The notes beneath the pieces are model-generated. The model was not told the origin of the DNA. It worked only from the letters and a program-made list of their open reading frames with translations, and ran no database searches. 32,000 bases of DNA from Nonlabens ponticola. Its GTDB lineage: Bacteria > Bacteroidota > Bacteroidia > Flavobacteriales > Flavobacteriaceae. Positions within the stretch are counted from its first letter, which is position 1; the number at the start of each line of letters is the position of its first letter. The stretch covers positions 570,001 through 602,000 of the forward strand of contig NZ_CP034549.1 of NCBI RefSeq assembly GCF_003966335.1, in the 5' to 3' direction. Below are positions 2,277 through 30,188 of the stretch, in pieces. The translations under genes were made by a program, and so were the position numbers.

Positions 2277-2292
2277 CGCTTTCGCGAAAGCG
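2277..2292. repeat. iterated palindrome copy 1 (CGCTTTCGCGAAAGCG), intergenic
   Basis: Perfect 16-nt palindrome lying 18 nt beyond the glnS stop. The dyad extends imperfectly over 2274-2295. Confidence 0.95.
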
Positions 2293-2309
2293 TAACTAAT
2301 CTAAATCCA

Positions 2310-3992
2310 TCATGCATTATCAATCTTTGCCCAAGTATCACGCAATGTTACCGTACGGTTGAAAACCATATTGTCCGCAGTTGTATCTGGATCTACACAG
2401 AAGTATCCCAGTCGCTGAAATTGTACTGTGTCACCTATCTGGAGATTCTTCATCGCAGGCTCTGCCATCGCTGTAATAACTTCCAGTGAGTCTTTATTCA
2501 CGAACTCCATAAAGTCCTTGTCCTTGTCAGTATCTGGTGATGGTACGGTGAACAATCGATCGTATAGCCTAACCTCAACAGGTACGGCGTGCTGGGCACT
2601 TACCCAGTGAAGTGTTCCTTTAACGCGACGCATGCTAGCCTCTGTACCGCTGCCGCTTTTTGAATCTGGATCATAGGTGGCGTGAATCTCTGTGATATTG
2701 CCATCTGCATCCTTTAGGCAACCTTCACCCTTGATGATGTAACCGTTCTTGAGGCGCACTTCTTTGCCTATGGAAAGTCTGAAGTATTTCTTATTGGCAC
2801 TTTCTTTAAAATCCTCACGCTCTATAAGCAGCTCTCTAGAAAATGGTACTTCTCTATAACCGCGAGACTCGTCTTCCTGACTATTTTCTGCCTGCAGCAT
2901 CTCTACTTGATCCTCTGGATAGTTTGTGATCACTAGTTTTACTGGGTCCAGCACACACATCACACGATCTGCCTTTTTATTGAGATCCTCACGCAAGTGA
3001 AATTCTAGGTGGTTCATGTCGACCATATTCTCACGACGCGCGATACCTACAGAGTCTGCAAAATTCTTGATAGCATCTGCCGTATAACCACGACGGCGCA
3101 AACCAGAAATGGTTGTCATACGTGGATCATCCCAACCAGTGACTAGATTTTGCTCTACCAGATGTTGCAATTTTCTCTTACTAGTAACCGTGTGTGAAAC
3201 GTTGCGTCTTGCAAACTCACGTTGTTTAGGACGTACTTTATTAGGATCTACTAATTGATCTAGAAACCAATTGTACAGCTCACGATGTGGCAGGAATTCC
3301 AGCGTACAAAATGAGTGTGAGATTTGCTCTATATAATCGCTCTCGCCGTGCGTCCAGTCATACATTGGGTAGATCTTCCAGTCTGTACCGGTACGGTGAT
3401 GTGGCTTGTCCACCACTCTGTACATGATGGGATCACGCATGAGCATGTTGGTGGATTGCATATCGATTTTGGCTCTTAATACATGTTCACCTTCACCATA
3501 TTTCCCGCTTTTCATACCTTCAAAAAGCTCTAAATTTTCCTCTACGCTGCGGTTGCGATATGGACTATTTGTACCAGGTTCAGTCGGTGTTCCTTTTTGC
3601 TCTGCGATGGCCTCGCTGGATTGTGAATCCACATAGGCCTTTCCATCCTTGATCAACTCAATCGCCCAATTATACAACTGCTGGAAATAATCTGATGCGT
3701 AGCATAGATTGTCCCATTTAAAGCCCAACCACTCTACATCATTCTTGATAGCTTCTACGTATTTTGCTTCTTCTTTGGCTGGATTTGTATCATCAAATCG
3801 CAGGTTTACTGGTCGATTGTACTTCTCGCCCAACCCAAAGTTGAGGCAAATGGCACTGGCATGACCTATGTGCAGGAAACCATTAGGCTCTGGCGGAAAT
3901 CTAAAACGCAACTTATCCTGTGAAAGACCTTGTTGCAGGTCTTCGTCAATAATATCTTCTATAAAATTGTTACGCTTTTCTAGATCGCTCAT
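2310..3992 (-). CDS. glnS: glutamine--tRNA ligase
   Basis: 560 aa. HIGH motif (PNGFLHIGHA), KMSKS-type motif (VTSKRKL), and class-I GlnRS-like sequence throughout. Confidence 0.95.
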   Translation of the reverse strand: MSDLEKRNNFIEDIIDEDLQQGLSQDKLRFRFPPEPNGFLHIGHASAICLNFGLGEKYNRPVNLRFDDTNPAKEEAKYVEAIKNDVEWLGFKWDNLCYASDYFQQLYNWAIELIKDGKAYVDSQSSEAIAEQKGTPTEPGTNSPYRNRSVEENLELFEGMKSGKYGEGEHVLRAKIDMQSTNMLMRDPIMYRVVDKPHHRTGTDWKIYPMYDWTHGESDYIEQISHSFCTLEFLPHRELYNWFLDQLVDPNKVRPKQREFARRNVSHTVTSKRKLQHLVEQNLVTGWDDPRMTTISGLRRRGYTADAIKNFADSVGIARRENMVDMNHLEFHLREDLNKKADRVMCVLDPVKLVITNYPEDQVEMLQAENSQEDESRGYREVPFSRELLIEREDFKESANKKYFRLSIGKEVRLKNGYIIKGEGCLKDADGNITEIHATYDPDSKSGSGTEASMRRVKGTLHWVSAQHAVPVEVRLYDRLFTVPSPDTDKDKDFMEFVNKDSLEVITAMAEPAMKNLQIGDTVQFQRLGYFCVDPDTTADNMVFNRTVTLRDTWAKIDNA

Positions 3993-4011
3993 CTTCTCAA
4001 AAATTAAGGGA

Positions 4012-4019
4012 CAAAGTTA
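4012..4019 (-). promoter_or_regulatory. -7 promoter box TAACTTTG for glnS
   Basis: Exact TAnnTTTG match on the minus strand, 19 nt upstream of the glnS ATG (3992). Confidence 0.4.
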
Positions 4020-4123: not shown

Positions 4124-4137
4124 GCTTTCGCGAAAGC
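4124..4137. repeat. iterated palindrome copy 2 (GCTTTCGCGAAAGC), intergenic
   Basis: Perfect 14-nt palindrome. The extended dyad ATTATGCTTTCGCGAAAGCGTAAT (4119-4142) pairs at 11 of 12 positions. It sits in the divergent glnS/folB region. Confidence 0.95.
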
Positions 4138-4166: not shown

Positions 4167-4550
4167 ATGACCACTGATTATCTTTACCACATGCATAAAA
4201 TTTTACTCGAGAATGTACGTGTGTTTACCAATCATGGCTGTCTAAATGAGGAAGAGCTCATAGGTAGTGAATACCGTGTGGATCTTGAAGTGGTGACTGA
4301 TCTTACTCGCAGCGCCAAGAGCGATGACCTGTCTGACACTGTGGATTATGTGTATCTCAATAAGGTAATCAAGGAAGAAATGGCAGTGCGATCAAAGTTG
4401 CTGGAACAAGTGGCGCAGCGCATACTGGACCGTATTTTTAAAGAGGAAGAAATGGTGCAACAGGCAACGGTGCATGTCTCAAAACTTAATCCACCACTAG
4501 GCGGCGATGTGGAAAAAGTGACGATTGCGATGACGCAATCACGATCTTAA
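4167..4550 (+). CDS. folB: dihydroneopterin aldolase
   Basis: FolB-like sequence (ILLENVRVFTNHGCLNEEELIGSEYRVDLEV ... DTVDYVYL ... KLNPPLGG). The true start may be the second ATG at 4191. Confidence 0.85.
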   Translation: MTTDYLYHMHKILLENVRVFTNHGCLNEEELIGSEYRVDLEVVTDLTRSAKSDDLSDTVDYVYLNKVIKEEMAVRSKLLEQVAQRILDRIFKEEEMVQQATVHVSKLNPPLGGDVEKVTIAMTQSRS

Positions 4551-4628: not shown

Positions 4629-4699
4629 GGCGTCATGGCCGAGTGGCTAGGCAAAGGTCTGCAAAACCTTGTACAGCGGTTCGAATCCGCTTGACGCCT
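4629..4699 (+). tRNA. tRNA-Cys (anticodon GCA)
   Basis: 71-nt cloverleaf. Acceptor GGCGTCA/TGACGCC, D arm GCC-GAGTGGCTA-GGC, anticodon stem AAGGT/ACCTT with loop CTGCAAA, T arm AGCGG-TTCGAAT-CCGCT, discriminator U as expected for Cys. CCA is not encoded. Confidence 0.9.
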
Positions 4700-6878: not shown

Positions 6879-7046
6879 CTAATGTCTATAACCTTTCCAG
6901 GTACCGCCATAACGATACTCTGGTAAACTTTGATGTTTCTCCGTACAGCTCTTACAACAAAATACCCATTCTTTACCACTTGTAAGCTGAATGCGGTACA
7001 ACGTGGTGTGCTCCTCACCGCAAGTATGGCAGATTTTGGTTTTCAC
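6879..7046 (-). CDS. 55-aa Cys4 zinc-ribbon-like mini-protein (not in the ORF track)
   Basis: Hand translation gives VKTKICHTCGEEHTTLYRIQLTSGKEWVFCCKSCTEKHQSLPEYRYGGTWKGYRH with CxxC ... CCxxC. The GTG start shares one nucleotide with the rnr TAG stop (TAGTG). It fills an otherwise unexplained 170-nt gap in an operon-like run. Confidence 0.5.
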   Translation of the reverse strand: MKTKICHTCGEEHTTLYRIQLTSGKEWVFCCKSCTEKHQSLPEYRYGGTWKGYRH

Positions 7047-9247
7047 TATTTCTGGTTTTCAACTTCAGACTTTGCACCGACCATCCAGAAATCTAGGTGT
7101 TTCTTAACAAGATCTGCATTCTTAACTTTTACATAAACCTCATCACCTAGACGGTAAGCATTTTTAGTCTTGCGACCTATCACGGCAAACTCTTCTTCTA
7201 CATACTCATAGGAATCATCGTCTAGATCGCCTAGACGTATCATTCCTTCGCATTTATTCTGTATGATTTCTACATAAATTCCCCAATCTGTCGCGCCAGA
7301 AATAACACCTAGGAATTCTTCATCTGCATGATCTTTCATGTACTTGACCTGCATGTATTTGATGCTGTCACGTTCTGCTCTCGTGGCTAGTATTTCCATG
7401 TCTGTACTATGCGTACATTTCTCTTGGTATTCTTCTTCATTGACTGGTTTACCACCATCTAGATAATGCTGTAATAATCGATGTACCATCACGTCTGGAT
7501 AACGTCTTATTGGGCTGGTAAAATGCGTGTAGTAATCAAAGGCAAGACCGTAGTGGCCTATATTCTCGGTAGAATACTCTGCTTTTGACATGGTGCGTAT
7601 GGCAAGCGTATCGATCATATTTTGCTCCTTGCCTCCTTTTACATCTTCTAATAATTTATTGAGTGATGCAGTGACTGTCTTGCGATCACGTAGGTCTAAT
7701 TTGTGACCAAAACGTGTTACAAATTGCGCTAGAGCCGTCAACTTCTCATCATTAGGCTCGGCATGGATTCTATAAACAAACGTGTGTTTAGGCGATCGCT
7801 TACCTATAAAGGCTGCTACTTTGCGATTAGCTAGTAGCATGAACTCTTCGATTAATTTATTAGCGTCCTTGGAAGTTTTAAAGAACACACCAGTCGGCTC
7901 GCTATTCTCGTTAAGGTTAAACTTCACCTCGGTCTTATCAAAACTCAATGCACCATCTTTCATACGTTGTGCACGCATTACTTTGGCGATTTTATCTAAC
8001 GTTAAAGTTGCTTCTGTGATTTCAGGTTTGATTTGAGTACGCTTTCGCGAAAGCGAGATATCCTCAGGAATATCACCTTTACCAGTTTCTATGATATGTT
8101 GAGCTTCCTCATAAGCAAATCGCTGGTCTGAATGGATGATCGTGCGACCAAACCATTCTTTATAAACCTTACCGCGATCGTCCATTTCAAACACGGCTGA
8201 AAATGTCAACTTATCCTCATGTGGATTCAGAGAACAAACGCCATTTGACAGAACCTCAGGCAACATAGGTACCACGCGATCTACCAAATAAACTGAGGTT
8301 GCACGCTCGTAAGCTTCACTTTCTAATACGGTGTTAGGTTTGACATAATGCGATACATCGGCAATGTGGATTCCTATTTCATAACGGCCATTTTCTAGTT
8401 TCTTGAACGATAGTGCATCGTCAAAATCCTTAGCATCTGCTGGATCAATGGTATAAGTAAGTGTCTCGCGCATATCACGTCTCGACGCGATTTCTTTATC
8501 TGTAATGATTTTATCCAGATTATTAGCGTGGGTTTCTACCGCCGCAGGGAATTCATAGGGTAAACCATATTGAGCAAGAATTGCATGAATCTCCGTATCA
8601 TGCTCACCTGGCTCACCAAGTATTGCTTTTACAGATCCAGTAGGTGAATCCTGTTTCTCGTTCCAGTCCATAAATTCGACGAGAACGACTTGACCATCCT
8701 TGGCATTGTTGATCATCTTTTTAGGGATGAAAAAATCTGTCTGGATTTTGTGATCTGTGACGTTTACAAAAGCAAACTTGTCGTGTACCTGTATGGTACC
8801 CACAAATTCGGTTTTATTGCGCTTTATAATCTTGGTAATCTCACCTTCTGGTTGCTGGCCGCGACGCCTGTGATATACATATACCTCGACTTCATCACCA
8901 TTGAGTGCCTGACCCAATGATCTTCTAGGAACCATAATATCTTCCTGCAGCTCGTTAGTTATAACATAACCGGTACCACGTGAACTGATGTCAATTTTAC
9001 CTGTGTAGTAATCAATTGCTTTAATAAACTTGAACTTGCCACGATCGACTTCTTCAATTTTACCTTTAGATTTGAGTAAGTGTAGTTTTTTAATGACCTG
9101 ATTACGGCCGCTCGCATCCTTTATACCCAGTTTGGCACAAACCTGCTTATAATTAAAGGTTTGGTCTGGATTTGATTTGAGTGTATTTGTTATGGATTGG
9201 GTAAGATTAGGGAACTTAGACTTACCGCTTTTTTTCTTCTTTTTCAT
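7046..9247 (-). CDS. rnr: ribonuclease R
   Basis: 733 aa. Lys-rich N-terminus, cold-shock-like region, RNB catalytic core (IDPADAKDFDDALS, HFTSPIRRYPD) and a C-terminal S1 domain. Confidence 0.95.
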   Translation of the reverse strand: MKKKKKSGKSKFPNLTQSITNTLKSNPDQTFNYKQVCAKLGIKDASGRNQVIKKLHLLKSKGKIEEVDRGKFKFIKAIDYYTGKIDISSRGTGYVITNELQEDIMVPRRSLGQALNGDEVEVYVYHRRRGQQPEGEITKIIKRNKTEFVGTIQVHDKFAFVNVTDHKIQTDFFIPKKMINNAKDGQVVLVEFMDWNEKQDSPTGSVKAILGEPGEHDTEIHAILAQYGLPYEFPAAVETHANNLDKIITDKEIASRRDMRETLTYTIDPADAKDFDDALSFKKLENGRYEIGIHIADVSHYVKPNTVLESEAYERATSVYLVDRVVPMLPEVLSNGVCSLNPHEDKLTFSAVFEMDDRGKVYKEWFGRTIIHSDQRFAYEEAQHIIETGKGDIPEDISLSRKRTQIKPEITEATLTLDKIAKVMRAQRMKDGALSFDKTEVKFNLNENSEPTGVFFKTSKDANKLIEEFMLLANRKVAAFIGKRSPKHTFVYRIHAEPNDEKLTALAQFVTRFGHKLDLRDRKTVTASLNKLLEDVKGGKEQNMIDTLAIRTMSKAEYSTENIGHYGLAFDYYTHFTSPIRRYPDVMVHRLLQHYLDGGKPVNEEEYQEKCTHSTDMEILATRAERDSIKYMQVKYMKDHADEEFLGVISGATDWGIYVEIIQNKCEGMIRLGDLDDDSYEYVEEEFAVIGRKTKNAYRLGDEVYVKVKNADLVKKHLDFWMVGAKSEVENQK
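8040..8055. repeat. iterated palindrome copy 3 (CGCTTTCGCGAAAGCG), inside rnr
   Basis: Perfect 16-nt palindrome, read as L-S-R-K in rnr (ISLSRKRTQ). Confidence 0.95.
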
Positions 9248-11104: not shown

Positions 11105-11551
11105 ATGCAGTTTCAATTCAAAAAATTTAACGAATTAAGCCTGCAGCAGTTGTACGATCTACTACAATTGCGCAGCGAGGTTTTTGTGGTCGAGCAGGAT
11201 TGTGTTTACCAGGATATAGACGGCAAGGATCACAAGGCCGTCCACGTTTTAGGTTATGATTGTGAATTACTTGCGGCATACACCAGGATTTTTCAAGCAG
11301 GCGATTATTTTGACGAGATCAGCATAGGTCGAGTGGTGGTGCAGCAGCATTATCGCAAGTCTAATTATGGTAAACTTATCATGGAAGCTAGTATGGATCA
11401 CGCTTTCGCGAAAGCAAAATCACCAATAAAAATATCTGCACAGCAATATTTGGAGCGGTTTTACACAGATCTAGGATTTGAGGCTACCGGTAAAAAATAT
11501 CTGGAAGACGGCATACCACACATGGAAATGATAGCGTATCCTAAGAATTGA
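11105..11551 (+). CDS. GNAT-family N-acetyltransferase, ElaA-like
   Basis: 148 aa. The ElaA-type N-terminus ([32 protein letters not shown]) and the C-terminal [11 protein letters not shown] are typical of the family. Confidence 0.85.
11402..11415. repeat. iterated palindrome copy 4 (GCTTTCGCGAAAGC), inside the GNAT gene
   Basis: Perfect 14-nt palindrome, read as A-F-A-K-A (DHAFAKAKS). Confidence 0.95.
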
Positions 11552-13685: not shown

Positions 13686-14024
13686 TTAGCAACAATTGAT
13701 TTTTTCCTTTGCTGGTGTATTTAAAAAAGTACCCAGCGTATCTTGTAATTGCGACCATACTGCTTGATTGATACAGTAGCACGTGCTCGTACCAGTAATC
13801 GTTCCTTGAATAAGGCCAGTCTCTTTCAATGCCTTTAAATGCTGTGAGATCGTAGCCTGCGCGAGGCCTATTTCTAGAACAAGGTCGCCGCAAACACAGG
13901 TTTCACGGCTTACCAGATGCTGGATAATTGCAATCCTAGCTGGATGTGATAACGCTTTCGCGAAAGCGGAAACCACCAACTGTTCACTGCTGTAATTACT
14001 AATCTTAGTTGCGCCCATATTCAT
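13686..14024 (-). CDS. arsR: ArsR/SmtB-family arsenic-responsive repressor
   Basis: 112 aa. Winged-helix core (FAKALSHPARIAIIQHL) with the As(III)-binding ETCVCGDLV motif. First gene of the ars operon. Confidence 0.9.
   Translation of the reverse strand: MNMGATKISNYSSEQLVVSAFAKALSHPARIAIIQHLVSRETCVCGDLVLEIGLAQATISQHLKALKETGLIQGTITGTSTCYCINQAVWSQLQDTLGTFLNTPAKEKINCC
13953..13968. repeat. iterated palindrome copy 5 (CGCTTTCGCGAAAGCG), inside arsR
   Basis: Perfect 16-nt palindrome, read as A-F-A-K-A (VSAFAKALS). Confidence 0.95.
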
Positions 14025-15077: not shown

Positions 15078-16729
15078 TAGCTCAAGATGCGTTTATATTC
15101 TTTGGGATTATCTAATACCTTAATGGCTTCTTGAATTTCAGGGCCGTACTTGAGTTGATATTCATACAAGCCATCGCGATAAAAATAACGCTTGACGATC
15201 TCGTCAGTGAGCAGGCTCATGATCTCGGCCTTTTTATCCTTAATGTCTCCTTTTTTGGCTTCCTTGATCGCCTGCACCATGGTCTGGTAGCTTGCATCAA
15301 TGTCGTCATCCAGTTGTTCATTGGCTGCTGTTTTGTAAGCTTTCGCGAAAGCTGACTCTGTAACTGTCTCAAAATCAAAACCACGAGCCTCAATCCATGC
15401 GATGAAGTCTGCAAAATCTTGATTACTCAATTTAATGTCATCTATACTCGCATACTGATGGTTGTAATAATAGTCAGTCGCATAGTCAAATATGGCATTA
15501 TCACGCAATAACGCGGTGGTAATAGGCGAGTAGGCAGCGCTCTCCATCTTAATATCGGGATCGATGCCGCCACCATCATATACCGTACGGCCGCTGTTGA
15601 CCGTCTTGTAAGCGTTGTAATCTTCCTTGAGCGTGCGCACGGCATTGCCATCTGCATCGCGGTTCCAGTAATCCAGCGCCTGGATGCATCTACCACTAGG
15701 CGTGAAATATCTAGAAATGGTAATCTTTACCTGTGTTCCATAGCTCAACTCACGCGGACGCTGTACGAGGCCTTTACCATAACTGCGTGCGCCTATCACG
15801 ACACCACGGTCATAATCCTGCACGCTACCGCTCACAATCTCGCTGGCACTGGCGCTGCGGCCGTTGATGAGAACCGCTAACGGTATATCTGCGTCAAAGG
15901 CTTTCTTTTTTGTCAAATAGGTGCGGTTGTACTTCTCGATAGAAGATTGTGTACTGGTAATGAGTTTATCCTTAGGAATAAAGAGGTTTGAAACATTCAC
16001 GGCCTCGCTCAATAAGCCACCAGGATTACCTCGCAGGTCCAAGATAATTTTTTGCGCACCTTGCTCCTTCAAATCACGTATCGCATCACGAGTTTCTCTT
16101 GAGGCTTTCTCGTTGAACTTTGCTAAAATTACATATCCTATATCGCTGGTTGCCATACCATAAAACGGTACCGCTTTAATATCTACCGCAGCACGTTCCA
16201 GCGTGGTGCTGTTTGTTTTACCTTGTCTAGTGTAGGTTACCTGTAGCTTTGTACCGGCAGAACCCTGTAATAGTTTTCCAGCATTATCCTCATAATCTGC
16301 GATCTTGATACCATCAATTTCCAGGATTTCATCGCCTGCCTTAAGGCCTGCCTTATCGGCTGGATAGTCTTTCCAAGGCTCAACGATTATCAGTTTGTTT
16401 TCCGTGGTGCGCACATTGGCACCTATACCTGTGTAGGCACCTCGCGAATTAATACGCGATTGCTCTACCTCTTGCTCTGTCCAGTATTTTGTATAAGGAT
16501 CAAGATCAGACAACATGCCTTCTATGGCGTTGTCCATAAGATCTGCAGGATTAGTCTCATCAACATAGTTCATGTTGATTTGTTTATACATCTCTGTAAA
16601 AATCTCAATCTGCTTGGCAATTTCAAAGAAGTCATTCTTGAAACTTGCTAGACACAACAGCATCGCACTTCCTAAAATGGGAAGCAGAATTTGACGCTTA
16701 ATTTTTACTGTGGTATGCTTTCTTGCCAA
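15077..16729 (-). CDS. S41-family C-terminal processing peptidase with PDZ domain
   Basis: 550 aa. PDZ region (PADKAGLKAGDEILEIDG) and S41 catalytic region (LDLRGNPGGLL ... GRSASASEI ... YGKGLVQ). The start is an apparent TTG, which preserves the N-terminal membrane anchor. Confidence 0.9.
   Translation of the reverse strand: MARKHTTVKIKRQILLPILGSAMLLCLASFKNDFFEIAKQIEIFTEMYKQINMNYVDETNPADLMDNAIEGMLSDLDPYTKYWTEQEVEQSRINSRGAYTGIGANVRTTENKLIIVEPWKDYPADKAGLKAGDEILEIDGIKIADYEDNAGKLLQGSAGTKLQVTYTRQGKTNSTTLERAAVDIKAVPFYGMATSDIGYVILAKFNEKASRETRDAIRDLKEQGAQKIILDLRGNPGGLLSEAVNVSNLFIPKDKLITSTQSSIEKYNRTYLTKKKAFDADIPLAVLINGRSASASEIVSGSVQDYDRGVVIGARSYGKGLVQRPRELSYGTQVKITISRYFTPSGRCIQALDYWNRDADGNAVRTLKEDYNAYKTVNSGRTVYDGGGIDPDIKMESAAYSPITTALLRDNAIFDYATDYYYNHQYASIDDIKLSNQDFADFIAWIEARGFDFETVTESAFAKAYKTAANEQLDDDIDASYQTMVQAIKEAKKGDIKDKKAEIMSLLTDEIVKRYFYRDGLYEYQLKYGPEIQEAIKVLDNPKEYKRILS
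15338..15353. repeat. iterated palindrome copy 6 (AGCTTTCGCGAAAGCT), inside the S41 peptidase gene
   Basis: Perfect 16-nt palindrome, read as A-F-A-K-A (ESAFAKAYK). Confidence 0.95.
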
Positions 16730-17259: not shown

Positions 17260-19119
17260 CTAGTTCTCAAGCGTGTTATTCTCGCGATTAACATCTGCCA
17301 TCATTTGTTTTGGGTCGATGGTGATCGATGAAACGTCTGCCGCATCAATACCAGGCAGTGTGAGATTATAAGTAGGGAAAGCCCACGGCCAGTCTGCCTC
17401 AACTTTCCAGTCGCTAGGTACTTCTTTCTCACCACGCATCATGCGTAATGGTAGGTAATACATATATTCATCGCCACTTTTAGTAGTTACCTTGATATCC
17501 AGTGGCATAGGCATGAGTCCCTTTCGCGAAAGCGTAACCACAGCATTACCAGAATCATTGACCACAGCATCAACACTGTAGTCAATCGTATTTGTAGTTT
17601 GCGTCCAGTCTGTATGATACCAGTCCAGTTCCATACCGCTCACACGCTCTGCCACGCGCTTGAAGTCGTTAGGCGTAGGGTGTTTGAACTTCCAGGTGTC
17701 ATAGTATTCCTTGATGATCTCGTCGCGCACCTCATCGCCTACTACATAACCCAATTGTGCGAGATAGGTAGCACCTTTAGAATAAGCACTAACGCCATAG
17801 GCAAAGTTGCGCTCATAGCGATCTGCATGCGTCGTTTGTGGTTGCTCAACGCCACTGTTCGCTAGTCTAATATAACCTGCATATGAACCTTCATTGGGAT
17901 TTTCTTGACCCTCATTCTTAATCTCATCCATGGCAAGATTAGAAATGTAGGTAGTAAAACCTTCATCCATCCACTCATGTTTTGCCTCGTTAGTAGCCAG
18001 TATGTGGTTGAACCATGAGTGCGCAAACTCGTGAGCGGTGACACCAGCTAGACCGTCGTAACTGCGCTCTCCAGTAATAAGCGTACACATGGCATACTCC
18101 ATACCACCATCACCACCTTGCAATACAGAATATTGTTTGTACGGATACTGGCCTATGTTCTCATTGAAGAATTGGAGCATCTTGTTGGTATCTGGTTGCA
18201 AGCGCTTCCAGTTCTCTTTCAAATTATCTTTGTTTAGGTAAAAAAAGTGCAGGTCAACACCATTGGCGCCTTTGTAAATATCATGCACATAATTAGGGTC
18301 TGCTGCCCAAGCAAAATCATGCACCTTAGGTGCTTTAAAGTGCCAGGTCAGTTTGCCATTCTCGCCCTTAGCAGGACCAGAGTTGGGCTTGTCATAGCCG
18401 TGACCTATTTCTTTTGGGTTTTGTAGATAACCAGTACCACCTACAGTATAGGATTTGTCCATGGTGAGTTTTACATCAAAATCGCCCCAAACGCCGTGAA
18501 ATTCACGACCTATGTAAGGACTAGCGTTCCAGCCGTCTATATCAAATTCAGCGATTTTAGGATACCATTGCGTCATGGATAGTGCGACGCCTTCCGCATT
18601 ATTGCGGCCGCTACGTCTTATCTGTACAGGAACTTGGCCATTAAAATCAAGCTTAAACATAGTGCTTTGTCCAGGTTTCAACGGCTTGGCAAGTGGCACG
18701 ACCAGAATGGTCTCTTCTTCTTTAGGATTGAGCGTCATACCATCTTGAGTCATGTTGCTCACATGCAGGTAACCTATTTCATTAGGTTTTAGCGCAACAA
18801 TTCGAGAGCCTACACGACCATCAGGATCTTGAATGCTGCGCGAGCGCACATCCATCTCACTACCAGGTTGGAAGGCGTTGAAGAACAGATGATAATACAC
18901 CTTATCCAGTGTTTCTGGACTGTTGTTGGTATACACCAGAGTCTGTTTACCGTCGTATTGATAGTTGTCGACATTCATGTCAACGTCCATTTTATAGTCA
19001 ACCTCTTGCTGCCAGTAATTAGGCATATCAGGGTTTTGAGCCATCGGTTTACTGGTCTCTTTAGTAGAACTACAGCTGGCCAAAACTGCCGCCGCGAGTA
19101 TTAAAAAAGTTTTTTTCAT
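17260..19119 (-). CDS. M1-family zinc metallopeptidase (aminopeptidase N-like) lipoprotein
   Basis: 619 aa. Lipoprotein signal (LAAAVLASCSS) and gluzincin motif HEFAHSWF-x17-WMDEGFTTY. Confidence 0.9.
   Translation of the reverse strand: MKKTFLILAAAVLASCSSTKETSKPMAQNPDMPNYWQQEVDYKMDVDMNVDNYQYDGKQTLVYTNNSPETLDKVYYHLFFNAFQPGSEMDVRSRSIQDPDGRVGSRIVALKPNEIGYLHVSNMTQDGMTLNPKEEETILVVPLAKPLKPGQSTMFKLDFNGQVPVQIRRSGRNNAEGVALSMTQWYPKIAEFDIDGWNASPYIGREFHGVWGDFDVKLTMDKSYTVGGTGYLQNPKEIGHGYDKPNSGPAKGENGKLTWHFKAPKVHDFAWAADPNYVHDIYKGANGVDLHFFYLNKDNLKENWKRLQPDTNKMLQFFNENIGQYPYKQYSVLQGGDGGMEYAMCTLITGERSYDGLAGVTAHEFAHSWFNHILATNEAKHEWMDEGFTTYISNLAMDEIKNEGQENPNEGSYAGYIRLANSGVEQPQTTHADRYERNFAYGVSAYSKGATYLAQLGYVVGDEVRDEIIKEYYDTWKFKHPTPNDFKRVAERVSGMELDWYHTDWTQTTNTIDYSVDAVVNDSGNAVVTLSRKGLMPMPLDIKVTTKSGDEYMYYLPLRMMRGEKEVPSDWKVEADWPWAFPTYNLTLPGIDAADVSSITIDPKQMMADVNRENNTLEN
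17521..17532. repeat. iterated palindrome copy 7 (CTTTCGCGAAAG core only), inside the M1 peptidase gene
   Basis: 12-nt core, read as L-S-R-K (VTLSRKGL). It keeps the GCGTAAC extension on one side. Confidence 0.95.
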
Positions 19120-19586: not shown

Positions 19587-19653
19587 ACCTGGGCTCGAAC
19601 CAGGGACTTTCTGATTATGAGTCAGATACTCTAACCAGCTGAGTTATAGGCCC
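19580..19653 (-). tRNA. tRNA-Met (anticodon CAT), elongator type; could be tRNA-Ile2 if lysidine-modified
   Basis: 74-nt cloverleaf. Acceptor GGGCCTA/TGGGCCC, D arm ACTC-AGCTGGTTA-GAGT, anticodon stem TCTGA/TCAGA with loop CTCATAA, T arm CCTGG-TTCGAGC-CCAGG. It is not initiator-like: G1-C72 pairs and there is no GGG/CCC anticodon stem. Confidence 0.85.
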
Positions 19654-20157: not shown

Positions 20158-20227
20158 TTTTAATTGAACCAAGTGCTTTTGAAATACAAGCCAATTACAT
20201 CAGTAAGAATAATATTTAAAATTACTT

Positions 20228-20345
20228 GCGTTAAGGATTGAAGAGGAAATCCTTTTTATAGTATGCGCAGCAAAGCACACCATAAAAAGATTGTAGCGCA
20301 AAGCCTGACCTGGCCTTTTTCTGGACAGGTAACGCCCAAATGATT
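20228..20345 (-). repeat. structured ~118-nt repeat, copy B (inverted relative to copy A)
   Basis: Its reverse complement begins AATCATTTGGGCGTT and ends CAATCCTTAACGC, like copy A. The hairpins sit at the same positions but have different sequences: CCTGTCC-AGAAAAA-GGCCAGG, and a 15-bp stem CTTTTTATGGTGTGC/GCATACTATAAAAAG with two G-T pairs. Confidence 0.7.
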
Positions 20346-20362
20346 ATGATGCGAGATTGAAT

Positions 20363-20370
20363 TACCTTTG
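20363..20370 (+). promoter_or_regulatory. -7 promoter box TACCTTTG for rbfA
   Basis: Exact TAnnTTTG match only 4 nt upstream of the ATG at 20375, which implies a leaderless or near-leaderless mRNA. Confidence 0.4.
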
Positions 20371-20374
20371 TAGC

Positions 20375-20770
20375 ATGGAAGAAACTCAACGTCAAAAAAA
20401 AATTGCGGGAATTCTGCAAGAGGATATCTCTAGTGTGTTGCAGGAAAAAATGCGCCAGAATGCGGTGAAGAATCTGCTGGTATCTGTGACTAAGGTTACG
20501 GTGACGCCTGATCTGGGTTATGCTAAGGCTTTTGTATCTGTTTTTCCTGCTAATAAGGCTGATGCGGTGATTGAGGAGATCAAGGAAATGACGGGTGAGA
20601 TACGCCATGAGGTGGCTGCTAGGGTGCGACACCAGTTCCGTAGGATGCCTGAGCTGCAAATTTATAATGATGATAGTTTGGAATACATGGATCAAATTGA
20701 TCGCGAGCTCAAGGGCGAGAACAACCCAATTGAGAATCCTGATATTTTACCGCGACGCAAGAAGTCTTAA
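20375..20770 (+). CDS. rbfA: ribosome-binding factor A
   Basis: MEETQRQKKIAGILQEDISSVLQ ... VTKVTVTPDLGYAKAFVSVF is RbfA-like. I prefer the start at 20375 (131 aa) over 20357, which lies upstream of the -7 box. Confidence 0.9.
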   Translation: MEETQRQKKIAGILQEDISSVLQEKMRQNAVKNLLVSVTKVTVTPDLGYAKAFVSVFPANKADAVIEEIKEMTGEIRHEVAARVRHQFRRMPELQIYNDDSLEYMDQIDRELKGENNPIENPDILPRRKKS

Positions 20771-22994: not shown

Positions 22995-25412
22995 CTAGAA
23001 TCCTGAGGTGCGCGTTCCTGTGCGTTCCTGATCTTCTGGAGTTGCCACATCGCGATTAGAAAGCCTGAAGTTTCCAAATTTATAGGTAAAGCCTAGTGCA
23101 ATGGTATTGGTTTCTGGTAAGGCTAGGAACCTGTTGTCCTGATTAAGGTATCTAGAAACTAGCGGCTGGTTCTGGCTCAAGAACAAGTCGTTGAAGTTGA
23201 GTGTTACTGCAGCACGGTTATTCCACAATGATTTGTAGAAACCTACACTCGTTGTCAATTGATCTTTGAACTCATAAGAGCCGCTCAAATAATTTGTCAA
23301 GTAACCAGCTTGCACATCGACACTAAAGGTGCGATCCTTACTCAAGGTAATGCGATTGAAGATGTTGAGGTAAAAACCAGTTACATCCAACTGCTGCTTG
23401 ACGCCACCAGATTGTACTGCGGTAAATTCGTTCTCCATATAAAACAAGCTAGACTGCGCCTGTAAAAACCAGGATTGATTTAAGTATTGGATGGTGGTAA
23501 AGTCCAGACTGTACTGCAACTCATAATCCAGGTTTGCATTTTGTGAATTGAGCGTAAAATTGTCGTTGTTTTGAAAAGGTAATATGGCTAACGCATCGTT
23601 TGTCCTTGTGTAATACAGGTCAAAAATATACTGTCCTTTATGCGTCCAGTTGAGGTTTACCTTATTGGTAAAGGCTGGCTGCAGGTTAGGATTACCTGTA
23701 TTGACATTGTTGTCGTTTATAAAGTAAGAGAATGGATTTAAACTCTCGTATCGCGGTCGTTCAATAGACCTCTTATAACTTAAGGTAAAGAGGTTGTTTT
23801 GATCTGTTTGTTTAGTCAATGATACGTTAGGGAATAGCTCAAAATATTCTTGAGTATTGACTTGTCCTAGAGAGCGGCTATCTCCTTCTACATCGGTTTG
23901 TTCTGCACGTAATCCTAGAGATAGCGCCCAGTTTTCCCAGTCGCGATCTAATTGCAAATATGCGGCATAGATATTTTCATCATAGATGAAGCGGTCAGAC
24001 AACTGGTCTCTAAATTCTCCAGAACCACCATTTGTATCAAAAAACAACAGTTCACTTGTAGAATTAACATCAGAATATTTAAGACCAGCGCCTACCACAT
24101 AGGCGCCAAATGTATTGCTAAAGTCTAGCTTACCCGTGCCGATATTGATATCCTGCAATGCATCTGTAAAGAAGCTATTAGTTCCCGTAGTATCTCCATT
24201 TTCATCAAAAAATCTACTGGATAGATCCTGAGTCTGGTCGCGGTCTGTGAAGATGTAATTTGCCTCTAGAGACAAGGTACCGCTACCTTCATTGAAGGTA
24301 TTGAGCCATCCAATGTTTGCAAAACCATTATTTCTATTTCTTGTAAGATCAGAGTCTGTATTGAAACCGTCAAATGTAAATGAGCCAGAAGGTAGTATAA
24401 AGGTCTCCACATCAGTATCGATGTCTTGATTTTGATTTACCGTAAGATTTGCGTTGATGCTCAAGGAATTGTTCTCGTTTAGAGTAAAATCTAGTAATGT
24501 GTTAAAGTTATGAGCATCGCTCACAGTTTCTTTCTCAAAATCTGTAAACCATCGTGAGTTGCGTGATCCATTATCGTTGAAAAAGCCTATTTGGGACTCA
24601 TCTAGTTTAAAATCCTTTCGCGGATTGTAGTTGTAGTTAAAGTAAACGTTGATCCAATTATTCTTATAGAATTGAGAGGTTCCTATCTGGTATTTGGCAA
24701 AGCGATCAATTGTGTATTCTCCATTGATTGATCCTTTATAACCTAGCGAGATACCTTTGCTAGTGTTTATATTGATCACCGCGGCACCTTCTGCATCATA
24801 GCGTGCTGGTGGATTTGTAATTACCTCGACGCTTTTGATATTATCGGCGCTGTAACCAGTCAATAGCTGGTTGAGCTCATCGCTCGTCAAATAAACACGC
24901 TTGTTATTAATGTAGATAACTGCTGGTGAATTTTGCACCATGTAACTTCCATTCATCTCAAAAATCCCAGGTGTTTGTTTTAGGATGTCCTGCGTGTTCC
25001 CGATACTTAAAGAACTGTTCTCTACATTAAATATGAATCGATCTGGACGCTTTTCTATAGTAGGTCTGCGCGCGGTAACGGTTACGCCTTCTAGCTGCTC
25101 TGTATTTTCCTGTAAAATTAAATCTGTGATGTTGAGATCTTTGTCGATAGTTAGCTTTCGCGAAAGCGGAATCATTCCAACAAAACTGCTCACCAGAGTG
25201 TACTCACCAGTATCAATGACGTTGATTTCAAATCGCCCTGCATCATCTGTTATCGTGGCCTTATAAAAAGTGCTGTCAGGCATTTTATATAGCAATACAT
25301 TGGCATAGGGAAAGGCATTTTGATCGCTATCTTTTACCGTGCCTGTAAGTTCATGTTGTGCAGTGGCACTAATGCATAGTAAACCGAGTAGTAGAGAGTA
25401 AAATAATTTCAT
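22995..25412 (-). CDS. TonB-dependent-receptor-like outer-membrane beta-barrel protein with N-terminal carboxypeptidase-regulatory-like domain
   Basis: 805 aa. Signal peptide, CarbopepD_reg-like N-domain (LTGTVKDSDQNAFPYANVLLY), plug-like segment, long Asn/Tyr/Phe-rich alternating beta-strand region, and an aromatic C-terminus (...GF). Confidence 0.8.
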   Translation of the reverse strand: MKLFYSLLLGLLCISATAQHELTGTVKDSDQNAFPYANVLLYKMPDSTFYKATITDDAGRFEINVIDTGEYTLVSSFVGMIPLSRKLTIDKDLNITDLILQENTEQLEGVTVTARRPTIEKRPDRFIFNVENSSLSIGNTQDILKQTPGIFEMNGSYMVQNSPAVIYINNKRVYLTSDELNQLLTGYSADNIKSVEVITNPPARYDAEGAAVININTSKGISLGYKGSINGEYTIDRFAKYQIGTSQFYKNNWINVYFNYNYNPRKDFKLDESQIGFFNDNGSRNSRWFTDFEKETVSDAHNFNTLLDFTLNENNSLSINANLTVNQNQDIDTDVETFILPSGSFTFDGFNTDSDLTRNRNNGFANIGWLNTFNEGSGTLSLEANYIFTDRDQTQDLSSRFFDENGDTTGTNSFFTDALQDINIGTGKLDFSNTFGAYVVGAGLKYSDVNSTSELLFFDTNGGSGEFRDQLSDRFIYDENIYAAYLQLDRDWENWALSLGLRAEQTDVEGDSRSLGQVNTQEYFELFPNVSLTKQTDQNNLFTLSYKRSIERPRYESLNPFSYFINDNNVNTGNPNLQPAFTNKVNLNWTHKGQYIFDLYYTRTNDALAILPFQNNDNFTLNSQNANLDYELQYSLDFTTIQYLNQSWFLQAQSSLFYMENEFTAVQSGGVKQQLDVTGFYLNIFNRITLSKDRTFSVDVQAGYLTNYLSGSYEFKDQLTTSVGFYKSLWNNRAAVTLNFNDLFLSQNQPLVSRYLNQDNRFLALPETNTIALGFTYKFGNFRLSNRDVATPEDQERTGTRTSGF
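25154..25167. repeat. iterated palindrome copy 8 (GCTTTCGCGAAAGC), inside the beta-barrel gene
   Basis: Perfect 14-nt palindrome, read as L-S-R-K (IPLSRKLT). Confidence 0.95.
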
Positions 25413-27374: not shown

Positions 27375-29228
27375 TTACTCAACATCTTCCATGACCACTT
27401 CACCACTTGCTTGCTCTACGATCTTTTTACCCATGTAAACCAGCATGTCGCCTTCTTCAACCTCTTGGTCAATCGCGTTTGACGGAATTAAATCAATCTG
27501 CTTGCCACTTCTTATAAACAATGGGACTATATCAGCATCAGTTTTGGTGATTTCAATCAACCCTTGAAAGTGCTGTTTTGAAGTAAGTTCTATCTCATGA
27601 ATATCGCCGTGGTGACGCGCTACTTCCATCAGGTTTACATAGTCGTCTGTAGCAGAGAACAATCCTGACTCTGGATTTTGATTGGGATTGCTTATTTCAC
27701 TACTGTGTACAATTCTAAAGGCGCCATTTTCTCCATACATTTTTCCAAAACGATCTATCGCATAATCATTGATTTGCGAGTTACCTGTCATAGCTAGTAA
27801 AAAGCCAATGTTGTTGAATTCAATGTCATCAGTCAGCGCATCGCTGTAGATATCGGCAACTTTAGCATCTAGTCCTTGTTCTTTAGCAACACGTATATTG
27901 TTTTTATTCGTGTCAATAAGAACGACGCTACGCCCGTGATCCTTTAAATATTTGCCTACTAGGCGAGAGAATTTTGAGGCGCCTACAATCATGATGCCTT
28001 CACTTTGTTTGAGGAATACGCCAACTATTTTAGCAAACATTCTTGCGGTAGTGGCATTAAGTAATACGGTTCCTGCAACAATCATGAACACAAGTGGCGT
28101 TATATATTCTGCACCTTCAATACCTTGATTGACCAGCTTCGTACCAAAAAGAGAAGCAATACCGGCAGCAACAATACCGCGAGGTCCAACCCATGAGATG
28201 AATAGTTTCTCATTGAGCTGCAATCCACTTTTATAAGAACTGGCAAAAACACCCAGCGGCCTTAAGATAAAGACCACAATAGCAAACAATGCAGCCGTTT
28301 TCCAACTGTAGATCAAGTAGAGATCTTCCATATTGATATTAGCAGCTAGTAGTATAAATAGAATCGAGATCAACAAAACACTTAAGGATTCTTTGAAATA
28401 AAGAAGATCCTTGATATTAGGCAGGTTGATATTTCCTAGAACCATTCCCATGACTACCACGGCAAGCAGTCCAGATTCATGAGCAAAAACATCACTTAAC
28501 ACAAAAACGCCAAGTACTGCAGCCAGTGTAAATACATTCAATAAATAATGCGGTATGATCTTACGCTTGATAGCAAATGCCAGTGCGTGTGCAAACGAGA
28601 ATCCAAAAGTAAACCCGAACAATACAATCTTTCCAAACTCCTCTAGCGCCACTAATGTAAACTCACCACCAGCACCAGCGCTAATAAATTCAAAAACTAG
28701 TACGGCAAATAAAGCACCAATTGGATCAATCAGGATGCCTTCCCATTTAAGTATGGAGCTCACATCCTTTTTAAGCGGGATATTCCGAAGGATAGGTGTG
28801 ATTACAGTAGGTCCAGTCACGATAATAAGTGCAGAAAAAAGCAGTGCAATCTTCCAGGTAAAGTCAAAAATGTAGTGCGCAGCAATACCACCACCAATAA
28901 AGGTAATAATCACAGCAACTGATATAAGCTTACCAATTACAGGACCTGTATTGAGGATCTCAATACGTTTCAACGTCAATCCACCTTCAAAAAGAATCAC
29001 ACTTATCGCTAGTGAGACAAAATAGAATAAGCTATCGTCAGGAAACAGGCCTTTCTCACCATTATAAATAGGCTGAATCAACTTAGTGGCATCTTCAGTA
29101 TATAAAGTTGCAAGTGGTCCAACTAGTAAGCCTATAAGTATCAACGGTAAAATGGCTGGTATCTTGAAGCGCCACGCCATCCATTGAGCTAGTATTCCTA
29201 AAATTATAATTCCTGCTAGTTCAAGCAT
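27375..29228 (-). CDS. cation:proton antiporter (Na+/H+ exchanger family) with C-terminal RCK (TrkA-N/TrkA-C) domains
   Basis: 617 aa. About 400 aa of polytopic exchanger domain, then a Rossmann-type segment (IMIVGASKFSRLVGKYLKDHGRSVVLID) and a TrkA-C-like end. Confidence 0.85.
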   Translation of the reverse strand: MLELAGIIILGILAQWMAWRFKIPAILPLILIGLLVGPLATLYTEDATKLIQPIYNGEKGLFPDDSLFYFVSLAISVILFEGGLTLKRIEILNTGPVIGKLISVAVIITFIGGGIAAHYIFDFTWKIALLFSALIIVTGPTVITPILRNIPLKKDVSSILKWEGILIDPIGALFAVLVFEFISAGAGGEFTLVALEEFGKIVLFGFTFGFSFAHALAFAIKRKIIPHYLLNVFTLAAVLGVFVLSDVFAHESGLLAVVVMGMVLGNINLPNIKDLLYFKESLSVLLISILFILLAANINMEDLYLIYSWKTAALFAIVVFILRPLGVFASSYKSGLQLNEKLFISWVGPRGIVAAGIASLFGTKLVNQGIEGAEYITPLVFMIVAGTVLLNATTARMFAKIVGVFLKQSEGIMIVGASKFSRLVGKYLKDHGRSVVLIDTNKNNIRVAKEQGLDAKVADIYSDALTDDIEFNNIGFLLAMTGNSQINDYAIDRFGKMYGENGAFRIVHSSEISNPNQNPESGLFSATDDYVNLMEVARHHGDIHEIELTSKQHFQGLIEITKTDADIVPLFIRSGKQIDLIPSNAIDQEVEEGDMLVYMGKKIVEQASGEVVMEDVE

Positions 29229-29264
29229 TTAAGTATGTATTTAGATTGAAAATTACAACTTTCT

Positions 29265-30188
29265 ATGAAGCTGTTGGTGATTACGCTTTCGCGAAAGCGC
29301 AATAAACACACATTAAACCATATATTTAGCCCTTTAACAAAATTTTTAGTGCACCATAACCCTTACCAGACGCTAGGAATAGGCGTCGCTTTCTCACCTA
29401 ATTTACAGGCCAATTTGAGTGAGGCAACACGCCTCGCAAAAATGCTTGAAACCCGATTGATATTGATTCATGTAGGTGAACAAAACCACGATAAGGAGAA
29501 ACAAATCAAGGAATTATTGCCAGCTGATTCTAATGACTATCAATTGGTTTTTAAACCTGGTAATCCGGTTGAATCAATAGTAGCTGCGGTAGATGAGTAT
29601 GATATCGACTTGCTTATTCTGGGTGCAGTAAAAGAGGAAAAGTTCGTTAGGTATTATCTAGGCTCTATTGCCCGTAAAATTACACGCAAGGCTTCCTGCA
29701 GCGTTTTACTACTTACAAATCCAAGTGTAGAGCGATTTGCCTGTGCGCATATTGTAGTCAATGGTTTAGAAGATGAGCATACGGCACAGACAATTCAAAC
29801 GGCTTTTCATGTTGCTCACAAATTAAAAACACCGCGCATCACTATTGTAGAAGAGATAAATAAAGAACGGGTCAATATCAAGATTGATGACGATCAAAGT
29901 TTGCAGCGAGCTAATGAGCTCAAGGATAAACTGCGCCGCGAGGAAGATGAGCGTGTTCAAAAAATTCTTGAAACCATACCACAGGCTAATCGTGAAGGGA
30001 TCAAGGTCGCGACACAACCTATTTTTGGCACACGTGGTTACTCCATAGGTCACTATGCTCAAATTAAAAGAGCAGATTTGCTGGTGATGAACGCGCCTAA
30101 AAGATCTAAAGCAATCGATCGCATGTTCCCACACGATATGGAGTACATACTCAATGAACTACCTACTGATGTCCTGATTGTACGATGA
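29265..30188 (+). CDS. universal stress protein, tandem USP domains
   Basis: Two USP-like halves (LGIGVAFSP ... DIDLLILGA ... SVLLL and HIVVNGL ... ADLLVMNA ... DVLIV). The first ~28 codons do not look USP-like, so the true start may be the GTG at 29349. Confidence 0.75.
   Translation: MKLLVITLSRKRNKHTLNHIFSPLTKFLVHHNPYQTLGIGVAFSPNLQANLSEATRLAKMLETRLILIHVGEQNHDKEKQIKELLPADSNDYQLVFKPGNPVESIVAAVDEYDIDLLILGAVKEEKFVRYYLGSIARKITRKASCSVLLLTNPSVERFACAHIVVNGLEDEHTAQTIQTAFHVAHKLKTPRITIVEEINKERVNIKIDDDQSLQRANELKDKLRREEDERVQKILETIPQANREGIKVATQPIFGTRGYSIGHYAQIKRADLLVMNAPKRSKAIDRMFPHDMEYILNELPTDVLIVR
29284..29299. repeat. iterated palindrome copy 9 (CGCTTTCGCGAAAGCG), in the divergent antiporter/USP region
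   Basis: Perfect 16-nt palindrome. The extended dyad ATTACGCTTTCGCGAAAGCGCAAT (29280-29303) pairs at 11 of 12 positions. It is coding (LSRK) only if the USP gene really starts at 29265. Confidence 0.95.

Follow-up and report, generated by a model that had tools for sequence, protein, structure and literature searches.

The 32,000-nucleotide window analyzed here (positions 570,001 to 602,000 of Nonlabens ponticola contig NZ_CP034549.1) holds ordinary chromosomal and housekeeping genes, among them those for glutaminyl-tRNA synthetase, RNase R, S41 and M1 peptidases, LepA, outer-membrane receptors, and transporters, with no transposase among them. Scattered through it are nine exact copies of a self-complementary 12-mer, CTTTCGCGAAAG, with core starts at 2279, 4125, 8042, 11403, 13955, 15340, 17521, 25155, and 29286. 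An initial annotation of the window had listed these nine copies and judged them beyond chance, and both statements hold: every copy was found and is exact, while dinucleotide-preserving shuffles, with up to one mismatch allowed, gave a mean of 0.13 matches and reached nine in 0 of 100 cases. The extensions of the palindrome that it had counted were also reproduced, to the 14-mer GCTTTCGCGAAAGC in eight of the nine copies, to the 16-mer CGCTTTCGCGAAAGCG in four, and to AGCTTTCGCGAAAGCT in one. A scan of the window for degenerate versions returned zero copies with one or two mismatches; when up to three are allowed there are 17 matches in total against 12.3 expected, and the eight with exactly three are at chance level. 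The proposed half-copy CTTTCGCGGATT at 24615 is one such chance three-mismatch match, and we rejected it as a relic. The smallest gap between copies in the window is 1385 bp (P = 0.02). The S41 peptidase encoded in the window is 100% identical to the N. ponticola protein, and an exact look-up of LepA found no record.

The motif extends beyond N. ponticola and is common to two genera. Our clade set, in which all loci are at least 21 kb long, comprised the window, nine other Nonlabens loci, and two Dokdonia loci, the last fetched because a motif-rich metagenomic population proved closest to Dokdonia. The 12-mer was found in 12 of 12, including all 11 loci outside the window. Over 271.8 kb these loci hold 74 exact, 10 one-mismatch, and 8 two-mismatch copies, or one per 3.7 kb; 69 of the exact copies are the 14-mer and 49 (66% in genomic loci) the 16-mer. 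Eight further Nonlabens species, represented by loci fetched around the S41 gene, each carry 4–7 copies per 21.6 kb, and the 22 kb loci of Dokdonia sp. Hel_I_53 and an uncultured Dokdonia carry six and eight. Among the best 80 relatives of RNase R, drawn from one-genome-per-species contigs, the motif occurs only with the closest, namely Nonlabens MAG-97 (MAG, metagenome-assembled genome; five copies in 22 kb) and a Flavobacteriales MAG (one copy in 4 kb). Neither exact nor one-mismatch copies are present in 77 loci of other Flavobacteriaceae genera (1.48 Mb), the taxonomic boundary being drawn from one locus of ~22 kb per outside genus. The 42 two-mismatch copies found there occur at the same rate per kb as inside the clade, which is background.

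Across nine Nonlabens loci (205.7 kb) we observed 53 copies where Markov models of orders 0–5, trained on motif-masked sequence, predict 0.002–0.016, an excess of at least 3000-fold. Shorter words within the motif do not share in it: outside the 12-mer there is a single TTCGCGAA, and TCGCGA not belonging to the motif is counted 33 times against 33.7 expected. Since neither is enriched, the unit is at least 12 bp and not a nested 6-mer. Extrapolated from about one copy per 3.7 kb in loci of ~22 kb, a genome would hold roughly 800 copies. Within the searchable library of papers, a search returned no description of CTTTCGCGAAAG or TTCGCGAA, nor of such a motif in Nonlabens, Dokdonia, or Flavobacteriaceae. 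We conclude with high confidence that a genomic signal specific to the Nonlabens and Dokdonia lineage of Flavobacteriaceae, and hyper-abundant in it, has CTTTCGCGAAAG as its core.

Codon alignments at six coding sites (RNase R against 77 other genera, and five genes within Nonlabens) bear on how the copies arose. At the motif columns of RNase R the other genera read S-L-T-G-K-A-Y, typically TCN CTT ACC GGA AAA GCA TAT, and Nonlabens species with the motif read S-L-S-R-K-R-T with the length unchanged. Within Nonlabens, the ArsR-type regulator reads A-R-M-A-K-A without the motif and A-A-F-A-K-A with it; the M1 peptidase reads L-K-R-I, F-K-R-N, or L-E-R-K where the motif-bearing species have L-S-R-K; and the acetyltransferase follows the same pattern, in each case without an indel. 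As none of the six sites differs in length between motif-bearing and motif-less orthologs, any insertion-based element is excluded. The view that the repeat is not an insertion sequence, a miniature inverted-repeat transposable element (MITE), or a CRISPR array is thereby borne out, and the housekeeping character of the window agrees with it. The alignments show that copies are made in place by point substitution, some of it non-synonymous.

Once present, copies tend to be kept. Of 197 copy-by-species-pair comparisons in alignable regions, 156 (79%) are identical over all 12 bases, against 8.3% for control 12-mers in the same alignments and 3–6% at the ~72% nucleotide identity that separates N. 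ponticola from its congeners. The codon alignments also show that synonymous positions are all fixed inside the motif and freely variable beside it. There is turnover as well, with some copies lineage-specific and a few orthologs carrying one- or two-mismatch versions. A case that lies outside the coding sites is a copy 8–10 nt after the stop codon of a large OMP_b-brl_3 receptor gene in three Nonlabens species (L319:2146, L320:3485, L323:3206), which is absent at that place in the window and so combines a conserved intergenic copy with turnover. The copies of the window, with their genes and orthologs, are the following:

2279..2290: copy 1, the 16-mer CGCTTTCGCGAAAGCG; intergenic, 19 nt 3' of the stop of the glutaminyl-tRNA synthetase gene (2310-3992, minus strand) and upstream of a YtxH-like gene (1714-2124, minus strand); ortholog in Nonlabens MAG-97 (L003:16555), 3' of the same gene.
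4125..4136: copy 2; in the divergent spacer between glnS (start 3992, minus strand) and folB (4167-4550, plus strand), 30 nt before the folB ATG; the sole window copy whose flanks extend the palindrome to a long hairpin (RNA fold -19.4 kcal/mol, z = -4.7).
8042..8053: copy 3, a 16-mer; in the RNase R gene (7046-9247, minus strand), codons 399-402, read L-S-R-K; exact 12-mer in five other Nonlabens species and a one-mismatch version in the L001 MAG.
11403..11414: copy 4; in a GNAT acetyltransferase gene (11105-11551, plus strand), frame A-F-A-K; exact 12-mer common to YIK11, N. agnitus, and a Ci31-like locus, and not at these columns in Hel1_33_55, MAG-97, N. dokdonensis, and N. antarcticus.
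13955..13966: copy 5, a 16-mer; in an ArsR-family helix-turn-helix gene (13686-14024, minus strand), frame A-F-A-K; the same columns read A-R-M-A/T-K-A, without an indel, in the dokdonensis, xylanidelens, and Ci31-like lineages.
15340..15351: copy 6, extended to AGCTTTCGCGAAAGCT; in the S41 C-terminal processing peptidase gene (15077-16729, minus strand), frame A-F-A-K; 12-mer exact in seven of nine Nonlabens species, its synonymous positions all fixed and neighboring ones variable.
17521..17532: copy 7; in the M1 peptidase gene (17260-19119, minus strand), frame L-S-R-K; the only window copy without the 5' G of the 14-mer; exact in five species, with L-K-R-I in N. dokdonensis, F-K-R-N in N. 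xylanidelens, and L-E-R-K in N. spongiae.
25155..25166: copy 8; in an outer-membrane beta-barrel receptor gene (22995-25412, minus strand), codon 83, frame L-S-R-K; kept in N. agnitus, Hel1_33_55, and N. antarcticus.
29286..29297: copy 9, a 16-mer; either codon 8 of the longest universal-stress-protein (Usp) open reading frame (ORF; 29265-30188, plus strand) or, more probably, in the divergent spacer between the Usp gene and a Na+/H+ exchanger gene (27375-29228, minus strand); the true Usp start codon is uncertain because the Usp domain match begins far into the ORF.

To describe placement and anatomy we joined the genomic loci to metagenome contigs scanned for the 16-mer, which yielded at least 120 stretches; 107 of these are low in GC and mostly marine, and many carry 2–6 copies among the matches listed. 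The combined set holds at least 192 non-redundant copies. By a crude ORF-based call, 43% of them are intergenic where ~15% of the DNA is non-coding, a roughly 3-fold enrichment; a hand count with the gene calls of the genomic loci gives an intergenic share of ~30%. Among the matches listed, the spacers used are co-directional (39), divergent (14), and convergent (10), and the distance to starts and stops is not fixed. Intragenic copies, again among the matches listed, are read as A-F-A-K-A (61), L-S-R-K (25), or R-F-R-E-S (23) and lie on either strand; as three frames and intergenic DNA are all used, we rejected a peptide motif as the conserved unit. The A-F-A-K-A copies often fall where an N-terminal signal peptide ends (as in ...FVLFAFAKALTAQ...; others are at L211:6861, L228:3196, L239:2858, L244:2253, and L271:6503), where the usual flavobacterial ...AFA-Q cleavage-region sequence is already near the motif.

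The copies are also spaced more evenly than chance would place them. Among 74 adjacent gaps in 45 loci, one is shorter than 500 bp where 11.7 are expected, six are shorter than 1 kb (21.9 expected), and 11 are shorter than 1.5 kb (30.6 expected). These values were reached in 0 of 5000 simulations (P < 2e-4), so that copies mutually avoid one another within ~1 kb. Placement is genome-wide rather than gene-linked.

Each copy is built around an invariant core of 14–16 bp, the 14-mer GCTTTCGCGAAAGC and usually the 16-mer CGCTTTCGCGAAAGCG. Beyond it, the genomic loci and the matches listed share the consensus ...T-T-A-C-G, core, C-G-T-A-A..., whose outer positions C-G-[T/G/A]-A-[A/C] are semi-conserved and lineage-dependent; because the 16-mer anchored the metagenome set, frequencies of the CG flank are inflated there. 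Populations vary in the base that comes first after this CG among the matches listed (chi-square 89.8, df 33, p = 4e-7), the base being mostly T in the North Sea, ORXC, and one TARA population, mostly A in MAAC01 and MAG-97, mostly G in the dokdonensis clade and two other populations, and almost never C. Outside these positions lies a mirror-symmetric skew of ~25 nt per side, in which each strand is T/G-rich 5' of the core and A/C-rich and nearly G-free 3' of it. For intergenic copies among the matches listed, positions +5 to +14 contain 5% G against 17% in the background, and an A+C fraction of 0.74 against 0.52. Purine and A+T contents of the flanks equal background, and the skew is purely along the amino/keto axis. 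It is present around intragenic copies too, and it decays with distance over the ~25 nt without a positional consensus. The initial annotation had held that the copies share no longer flanking element, a statement that the shared consensus and the skew overturn.

The skew on the two sides of one copy is independent (r = -0.09) and equal in degree, on which ground we rejected a one-sided, replication-related skew. The A+C fraction of the flank is 0.64 in Dokdonia and 0.66 in multi-copy phage contigs, and unrelated viral contigs in which the 14-mer occurs by chance do not show the skew there (A+C 0.48–0.49). It follows the presence of the site in orthologs to a small degree (0.61 with the site vs 0.54 without; n = 19, non-independent), and the flanks of a Dokdonia RNase R ortholog without the site are already skewed. 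From flank composition alone, transitions (G->A, T->C) are not separable from selection for strand identity. Between the two flanks of one copy there is no complementarity beyond that due to composition, as their mirror identity equals the shuffled expectation, and the RNA folds of eight of the nine window copies are no better than those of shuffled sequence. A long hairpin or cruciform was accordingly rejected, and so was an RNA element, as no Rfam family overlaps any copy and the folds are unremarkable. Together, the non-complementary flanks and unremarkable folds lead us to describe the element as a two-fold symmetric duplex site of ~56 bp rather than a hairpin.

Phage sequences differ with respect to the motif. 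The lytic Nonlabens siphovirus P12024S (JQ823122, L327, 35.7 kb) contains zero copies within two mismatches and zero TCGCGA. It also avoids short palindromes that are not avoided in Nonlabens host loci, with 9 CGCG against 42.8 expected, 0 GGCC against 32, 2 CCGG against 32, and 2 GAATTC against 8.2. The five-fold avoidance of CGCG, which is the center of the motif, suggests that CGCG is a restriction target in the host range and hence methylated in host DNA. It is an indirect hint of the link to a methyltransferase or restriction system that the initial annotation had raised. Several uncultured viral contigs of low GC that encode portal, major-head, baseplate, or terminase proteins carry 2–3 copies per ~12 kb (L169, L133, L120, L102, L194/L197, and L188), and these copies have CG flanks and skew like those of the host. 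Among cultured phages, the nearest relative of these contigs is Cellulophaga phage phi39:1 (35% identity in the portal protein), and the motif could assign uncultured phages of this kind to Nonlabens or Dokdonia hosts.

Some further features were noted in passing. When 25 kb of the window was compared with phage records by megablast, the sole match was a 36-nt tRNA fragment (4635-4670, in a human faecal phage contig), which lies inside the first of the two tRNA genes of the window (4629-4699, plus strand; 19580-19653, minus strand) and is not meaningful. A Flavo-1 RNA (Rfam RF01705) lies at 20223-20314 on the plus strand, just upstream of the rbfA-ftsX block, with 53.4 bits against a gathering score of 42; a 154-amino-acid ORF that overlaps it (20231-20695, minus strand) has no Pfam match and is probably spurious. 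A survey of other over-represented 10-mers in 80 flavobacterial loci found nothing comparable to the motif save CTTCCGAAG in Ulvibacter litoralis DSM 16195 (L032). This different, non-palindromic oligomer or its complement occurs six times in 22 kb, five of them on one strand (104, 4295, 7730, 13113, 18382, and 21829), where we estimate ~0.09 from base composition. Two tandem repeats were also seen, one of ~150 bp carrying GTGGGCCCAC beside a tRNA-like 3' end in N. antarcticus (L324, 6713-7023), and one of ~120 bp with seven copies and an internal palindrome, CTCCCGATAGCGATCGGGAG, in Flavobacterium orientale (L067, 14951-15760).

What might such a signal do? By analogy, we tentatively read the motif as a self-tag similar to the highly iterated palindrome HIP1 of cyanobacteria and to DNA-uptake sequences (DUS), recognized by a symmetric reader protein and favoring DNA uptake and/or recombination. 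We prefer this reading because the properties demonstrated here match those that define genome-saturating signals. The likeness to HIP1 and uptake sequences had been pointed out from the window, and every property tested since then fits it, including the clade-wide range, the in-place origin, the conservation, the occurrence in and between genes, and the spacing. In the proposed mechanism, a symmetric and presumably dimeric protein would read the exact site on duplex DNA, and motif-bearing DNA would be favored in uptake and/or homologous recombination among clade members. Copies, which arise by point substitution wherever the local sequence tolerates it and then stay exact across speciation, would spread by molecular drive plus selection to about one copy per recombining fragment. 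The central CGCG would probably be methylated in vivo, and the skewed flanks would either belong to the footprint of the protein or carry a mutational trace left by strand-specific processing. There is precedent for several of these steps. HIP1 is conserved by selection and quasi-periodic (PMC5861425), boosts natural transformation in a way that depends on methylation (bioRxiv 10.1101/2024.09.10.611283), and has now been put forward as a signal for uptake (bioRxiv 10.64898/2026.06.24.733823). Riemerella columbina, a related flavobacterium, is naturally competent and prefers its own DNA, with no uptake sequence identified (PMC7965970).

Several points weigh against the self-tag. Its functional step in Nonlabens and Dokdonia rests on analogy, and our literature search found no work on competence in either genus. 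Known uptake sequences are asymmetric and ~3 times denser, and one-mismatch variants of the present motif are much rarer (10 against 74 exact copies) than those of HIP1 or the uptake signal sequences (USS) of Pasteurellaceae; given this scarcity, an enzyme-like, all-or-none reader fits at least as well as an uptake receptor. We also know of no counterpart to the flank skew in HIP1, DUS, or USS. The sampling should be kept in mind too, as the Nonlabens loci are orthologous and the species counts therefore not independent, the figure of ~800 per genome is extrapolated from loci, the metagenome sample was anchored on the 16-mer, and gene calls for the metagenome loci came solely from ORFs.

The same evidence can be set against other explanations. 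The copies may be sites of an abundant nucleoid-associated or chromosome-organizing protein, either a dimer in the style of Noc, ParB, SlmA, or KorB or a loading factor for structural maintenance of chromosomes (SMC) complexes, selected for regular spacing to structure the chromosome and without a role in DNA exchange. This is somewhat unlikely in our judgment, even though the palindromic 14–16-bp core read as duplex DNA, the over-even spacing, the conservation of copies between species, and a symmetric flank signature of ~56 bp, compatible with a large footprint, all speak for it. A chromosome-structure role was also argued for HIP1 by Xu et al. (PMC5861425). Binding-site families normally include many weaker near-cognates, yet copies with one mismatch are 7-fold rarer here than exact copies, and those with two do not rise above background. 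Noc, SlmA, MatP, and ParB have tens of sites per genome, and the extrapolated ~800 copies are 10–100 times the numbers typical of such proteins. The half-site spacing, TTTC-GC-GAAA, differs from the TTTC-NNNN-GAAA of parS and the Noc-binding site (NBS), and copies on phage structural modules would be unexpected unless these are long-resident prophages. The earlier suggestion of a Noc-, ParB-, or SlmA-type site may still hold; the motif agrees with it in being a palindromic 12–16-bp duplex site and departs from it in copy number and in the scarcity of graded near-cognates. An enzyme that nicks or cleaves at the core is another candidate, doubtful in our view and compatible with the self-tag. 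Time and again the strand of the 5' flank would become exposed, through short 5'-3' resection or through short-patch resynthesis, and the skew would be the mutational footprint of this process. The specificity is all-or-none, as for enzymes, and the skew has suitable properties, as it is purely amino/keto, decays over ~25 nt, and is two-sided, independent, and without positional consensus, with a geometry that fits single-strand exposure of a strand ending 3' at a central break. The five-fold avoidance of CGCG by the lytic phage, suggesting a restriction target, points the same way. The role could be linked to methylation of CGCG or TCGCGA, to strand discrimination in mismatch repair in a MutH-less bacterium, or to a Chi-like recombination signal, and a methyl-directed mismatch-repair ratchet was proposed for HIP1 by Elhai (PMC4390886). 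Processing alone, however, does not explain the accumulation of copies, no nuclease or methyltransferase was seen in the loci examined, and the skew tracks the site only weakly in orthologs and is already there in the Dokdonia RNase R ortholog without the site; its composition, as noted above, does not tell transitions apart from selection for strand identity. Carried further, the whole ~56 bp would be a processing site at which a sequence-specific enzyme repeatedly nicks, cuts, or melts the DNA, so that on either side the strand lying 5' of the core is exposed and acquires an amino-to-keto mutational footprint (C->T, A->G). We regard this version as improbable; if true, it would make the motif a new kind of self-DNA signal and not a passive binding site, for example a strand-discrimination or repair-recombination entry site in the MutH-less Bacteroidota, or a cleavage and entry point in DNA uptake.

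The remaining explanations make the motif a functionless by-product, an RNA or regulatory element, or a mobile element. A biased mutation or repair ratchet could turn near-matches into the motif without any selection acting on single copies. The motif would then be a functionless by-product with the in-place substitution origin that we observe, and a ratchet that continued could mimic conservation. It predicts no mutual avoidance, yet short gaps are strongly depleted, and it predicts a halo of near-matches and enriched sub-words, neither of which is present. We know of no repair enzyme with 12–16-bp specificity, and a lytic phage that replicates in the same cytoplasm has neither copy nor near-copy, all of which makes the ratchet quite unlikely. 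We give still less weight, and very little, to the idea that the motif acts in transcription or as RNA, be it as an operator to which a global regulator binds, as a terminator working in both directions, or as a structured RNA. The ~3-fold intergenic enrichment, several copies 8–30 nt after stop codons, and the strong hairpin at copy 2 could be cited for it; more than half of the copies, however, are intragenic, in three frames and on either strand, every intergenic configuration is used (39/14/10), and there is no T-run, the 3' flank being A/C-rich and unlike an intrinsic terminator. Eight of the nine window copies moreover fold like shuffled sequence, with flanks that are not complementary and no Rfam overlap. 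That the motif is a miniature mobile element, of the MITE, repetitive extragenic palindrome (REP), or Rickettsia palindromic element (RPE) kind, or the footprint of one, we consider next to impossible: it is dispersed and palindromic and its outer positions are lineage-specific, but six coding sites show no length difference, the flanks share composition and not sequence, and the window has no transposase.

Hyper-abundant exact oligomers are rare and informative, with uptake sequences having led to self-recognition in transformation and Chi to the control of RecBCD, and HIP1 stayed unexplained for 30 years. The Nonlabens and Dokdonia motif provides a second, independent case of a highly iterated palindrome, in another phylum than the cyanobacteria. 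It is longer and sharper, it has a clear boundary (present in Nonlabens and Dokdonia, absent from the sampled neighbor genera), and its hosts are cultivable and sequenced. The purpose of iterated palindromes can be approached by comparison across a presence/absence boundary. The mirror-symmetric amino/keto skew may in addition record a biochemical event at the site. In practical terms, the motif is a sensitive marker for binning the DNA of Nonlabens, Dokdonia, and their long-resident phages in marine metagenomes, and a candidate handle for better genetic tools in these model marine flavobacteria.

Among known systems, HIP1 (GCGATCGC) is like the present motif in being an exact, hyper-abundant palindrome found in and between genes and propagated by substitution rather than insertion, in being conserved at orthologous positions beyond codon-level expectation, and in having non-random spacing and lineage-specific extensions or derivatives. 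Within both cores lies a short palindrome rich in CG that methylation could plausibly target, and the features that mark the HIP1 family recur here in the clade-wide excess of at least 3000-fold, the substitution origin, and the orthologous conservation of 79% against 8.3%. The function of HIP1, long unknown, is now linked to transformation (PMC5861425, PMC4390886, bioRxiv 10.1101/2024.09.10.611283). The differences are that our motif belongs to Bacteroidota, is unrelated in sequence with a core that contains neither GATC nor CGATCG, has a core of 12–16 bp rather than 8 bp, and is 4–10 times sparser at one per 3.7 kb, and that its one-mismatch variants are rare whereas the one-off variants of HIP1 are common and conserved. 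A 25-nt amino/keto skew of the flanks has, to our knowledge, been described neither for HIP1 nor for other elements of this class. The DUS of Neisseriaceae and the USS of Pasteurellaceae share with it a clade-specific exact core (9–12 nt in their case) whose flank is extended but weaker, copies that number in the hundreds to thousands (by extrapolation for our motif), accumulation in place that includes coding regions (in tolerated frames and variable parts of proteins), intergenic enrichment, and dialects. Their spacing is rather even, as is that of the Nonlabens and Dokdonia motif. Unlike it, they are asymmetric and occur in two orientations, while here core and flank are two-fold symmetric; they are also ~3 times denser, and a receptor and natural competence have been demonstrated for them, where our motif is known from sequence. 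Riemerella is the one member of the order for which competence is reported, and no uptake sequence has been identified there (PMC7965970).

The sites of Noc (NBS), ParB (parS), SlmA (SlmA-binding site, SBS), and KorB resemble the motif as perfect or near-perfect palindromes of 12–16 bp that are read by a dimer on duplex DNA, are often intragenic, and contain TTTC...GAAA half-sites; they differ in numbering tens of degenerate sites per genome against ~800 by extrapolation, and the half-site spacing of our motif is 2 bp off that of parS and NBS. REP sequences and bacterial interspersed mosaic elements (BIME), MITEs, and Rickettsia palindromic elements are likewise dispersed, palindromic, and lineage-specific. 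These, however, are inserted units of 30–150 bp with stable hairpins that are mostly extragenic or form in-frame insertions, and the Nonlabens and Dokdonia motif shows neither insertion nor a stable hairpin, nor do its flanks have sequence in common. Intrinsic terminators differ from it as well, given its A/C-rich 3' flank and the more than half of its copies that are intragenic. By kind, then, the motif belongs with the iterated palindromes and uptake sequences, and it differs from them in phylum, in the length and sharpness of its core, and in the architecture of its flanks.

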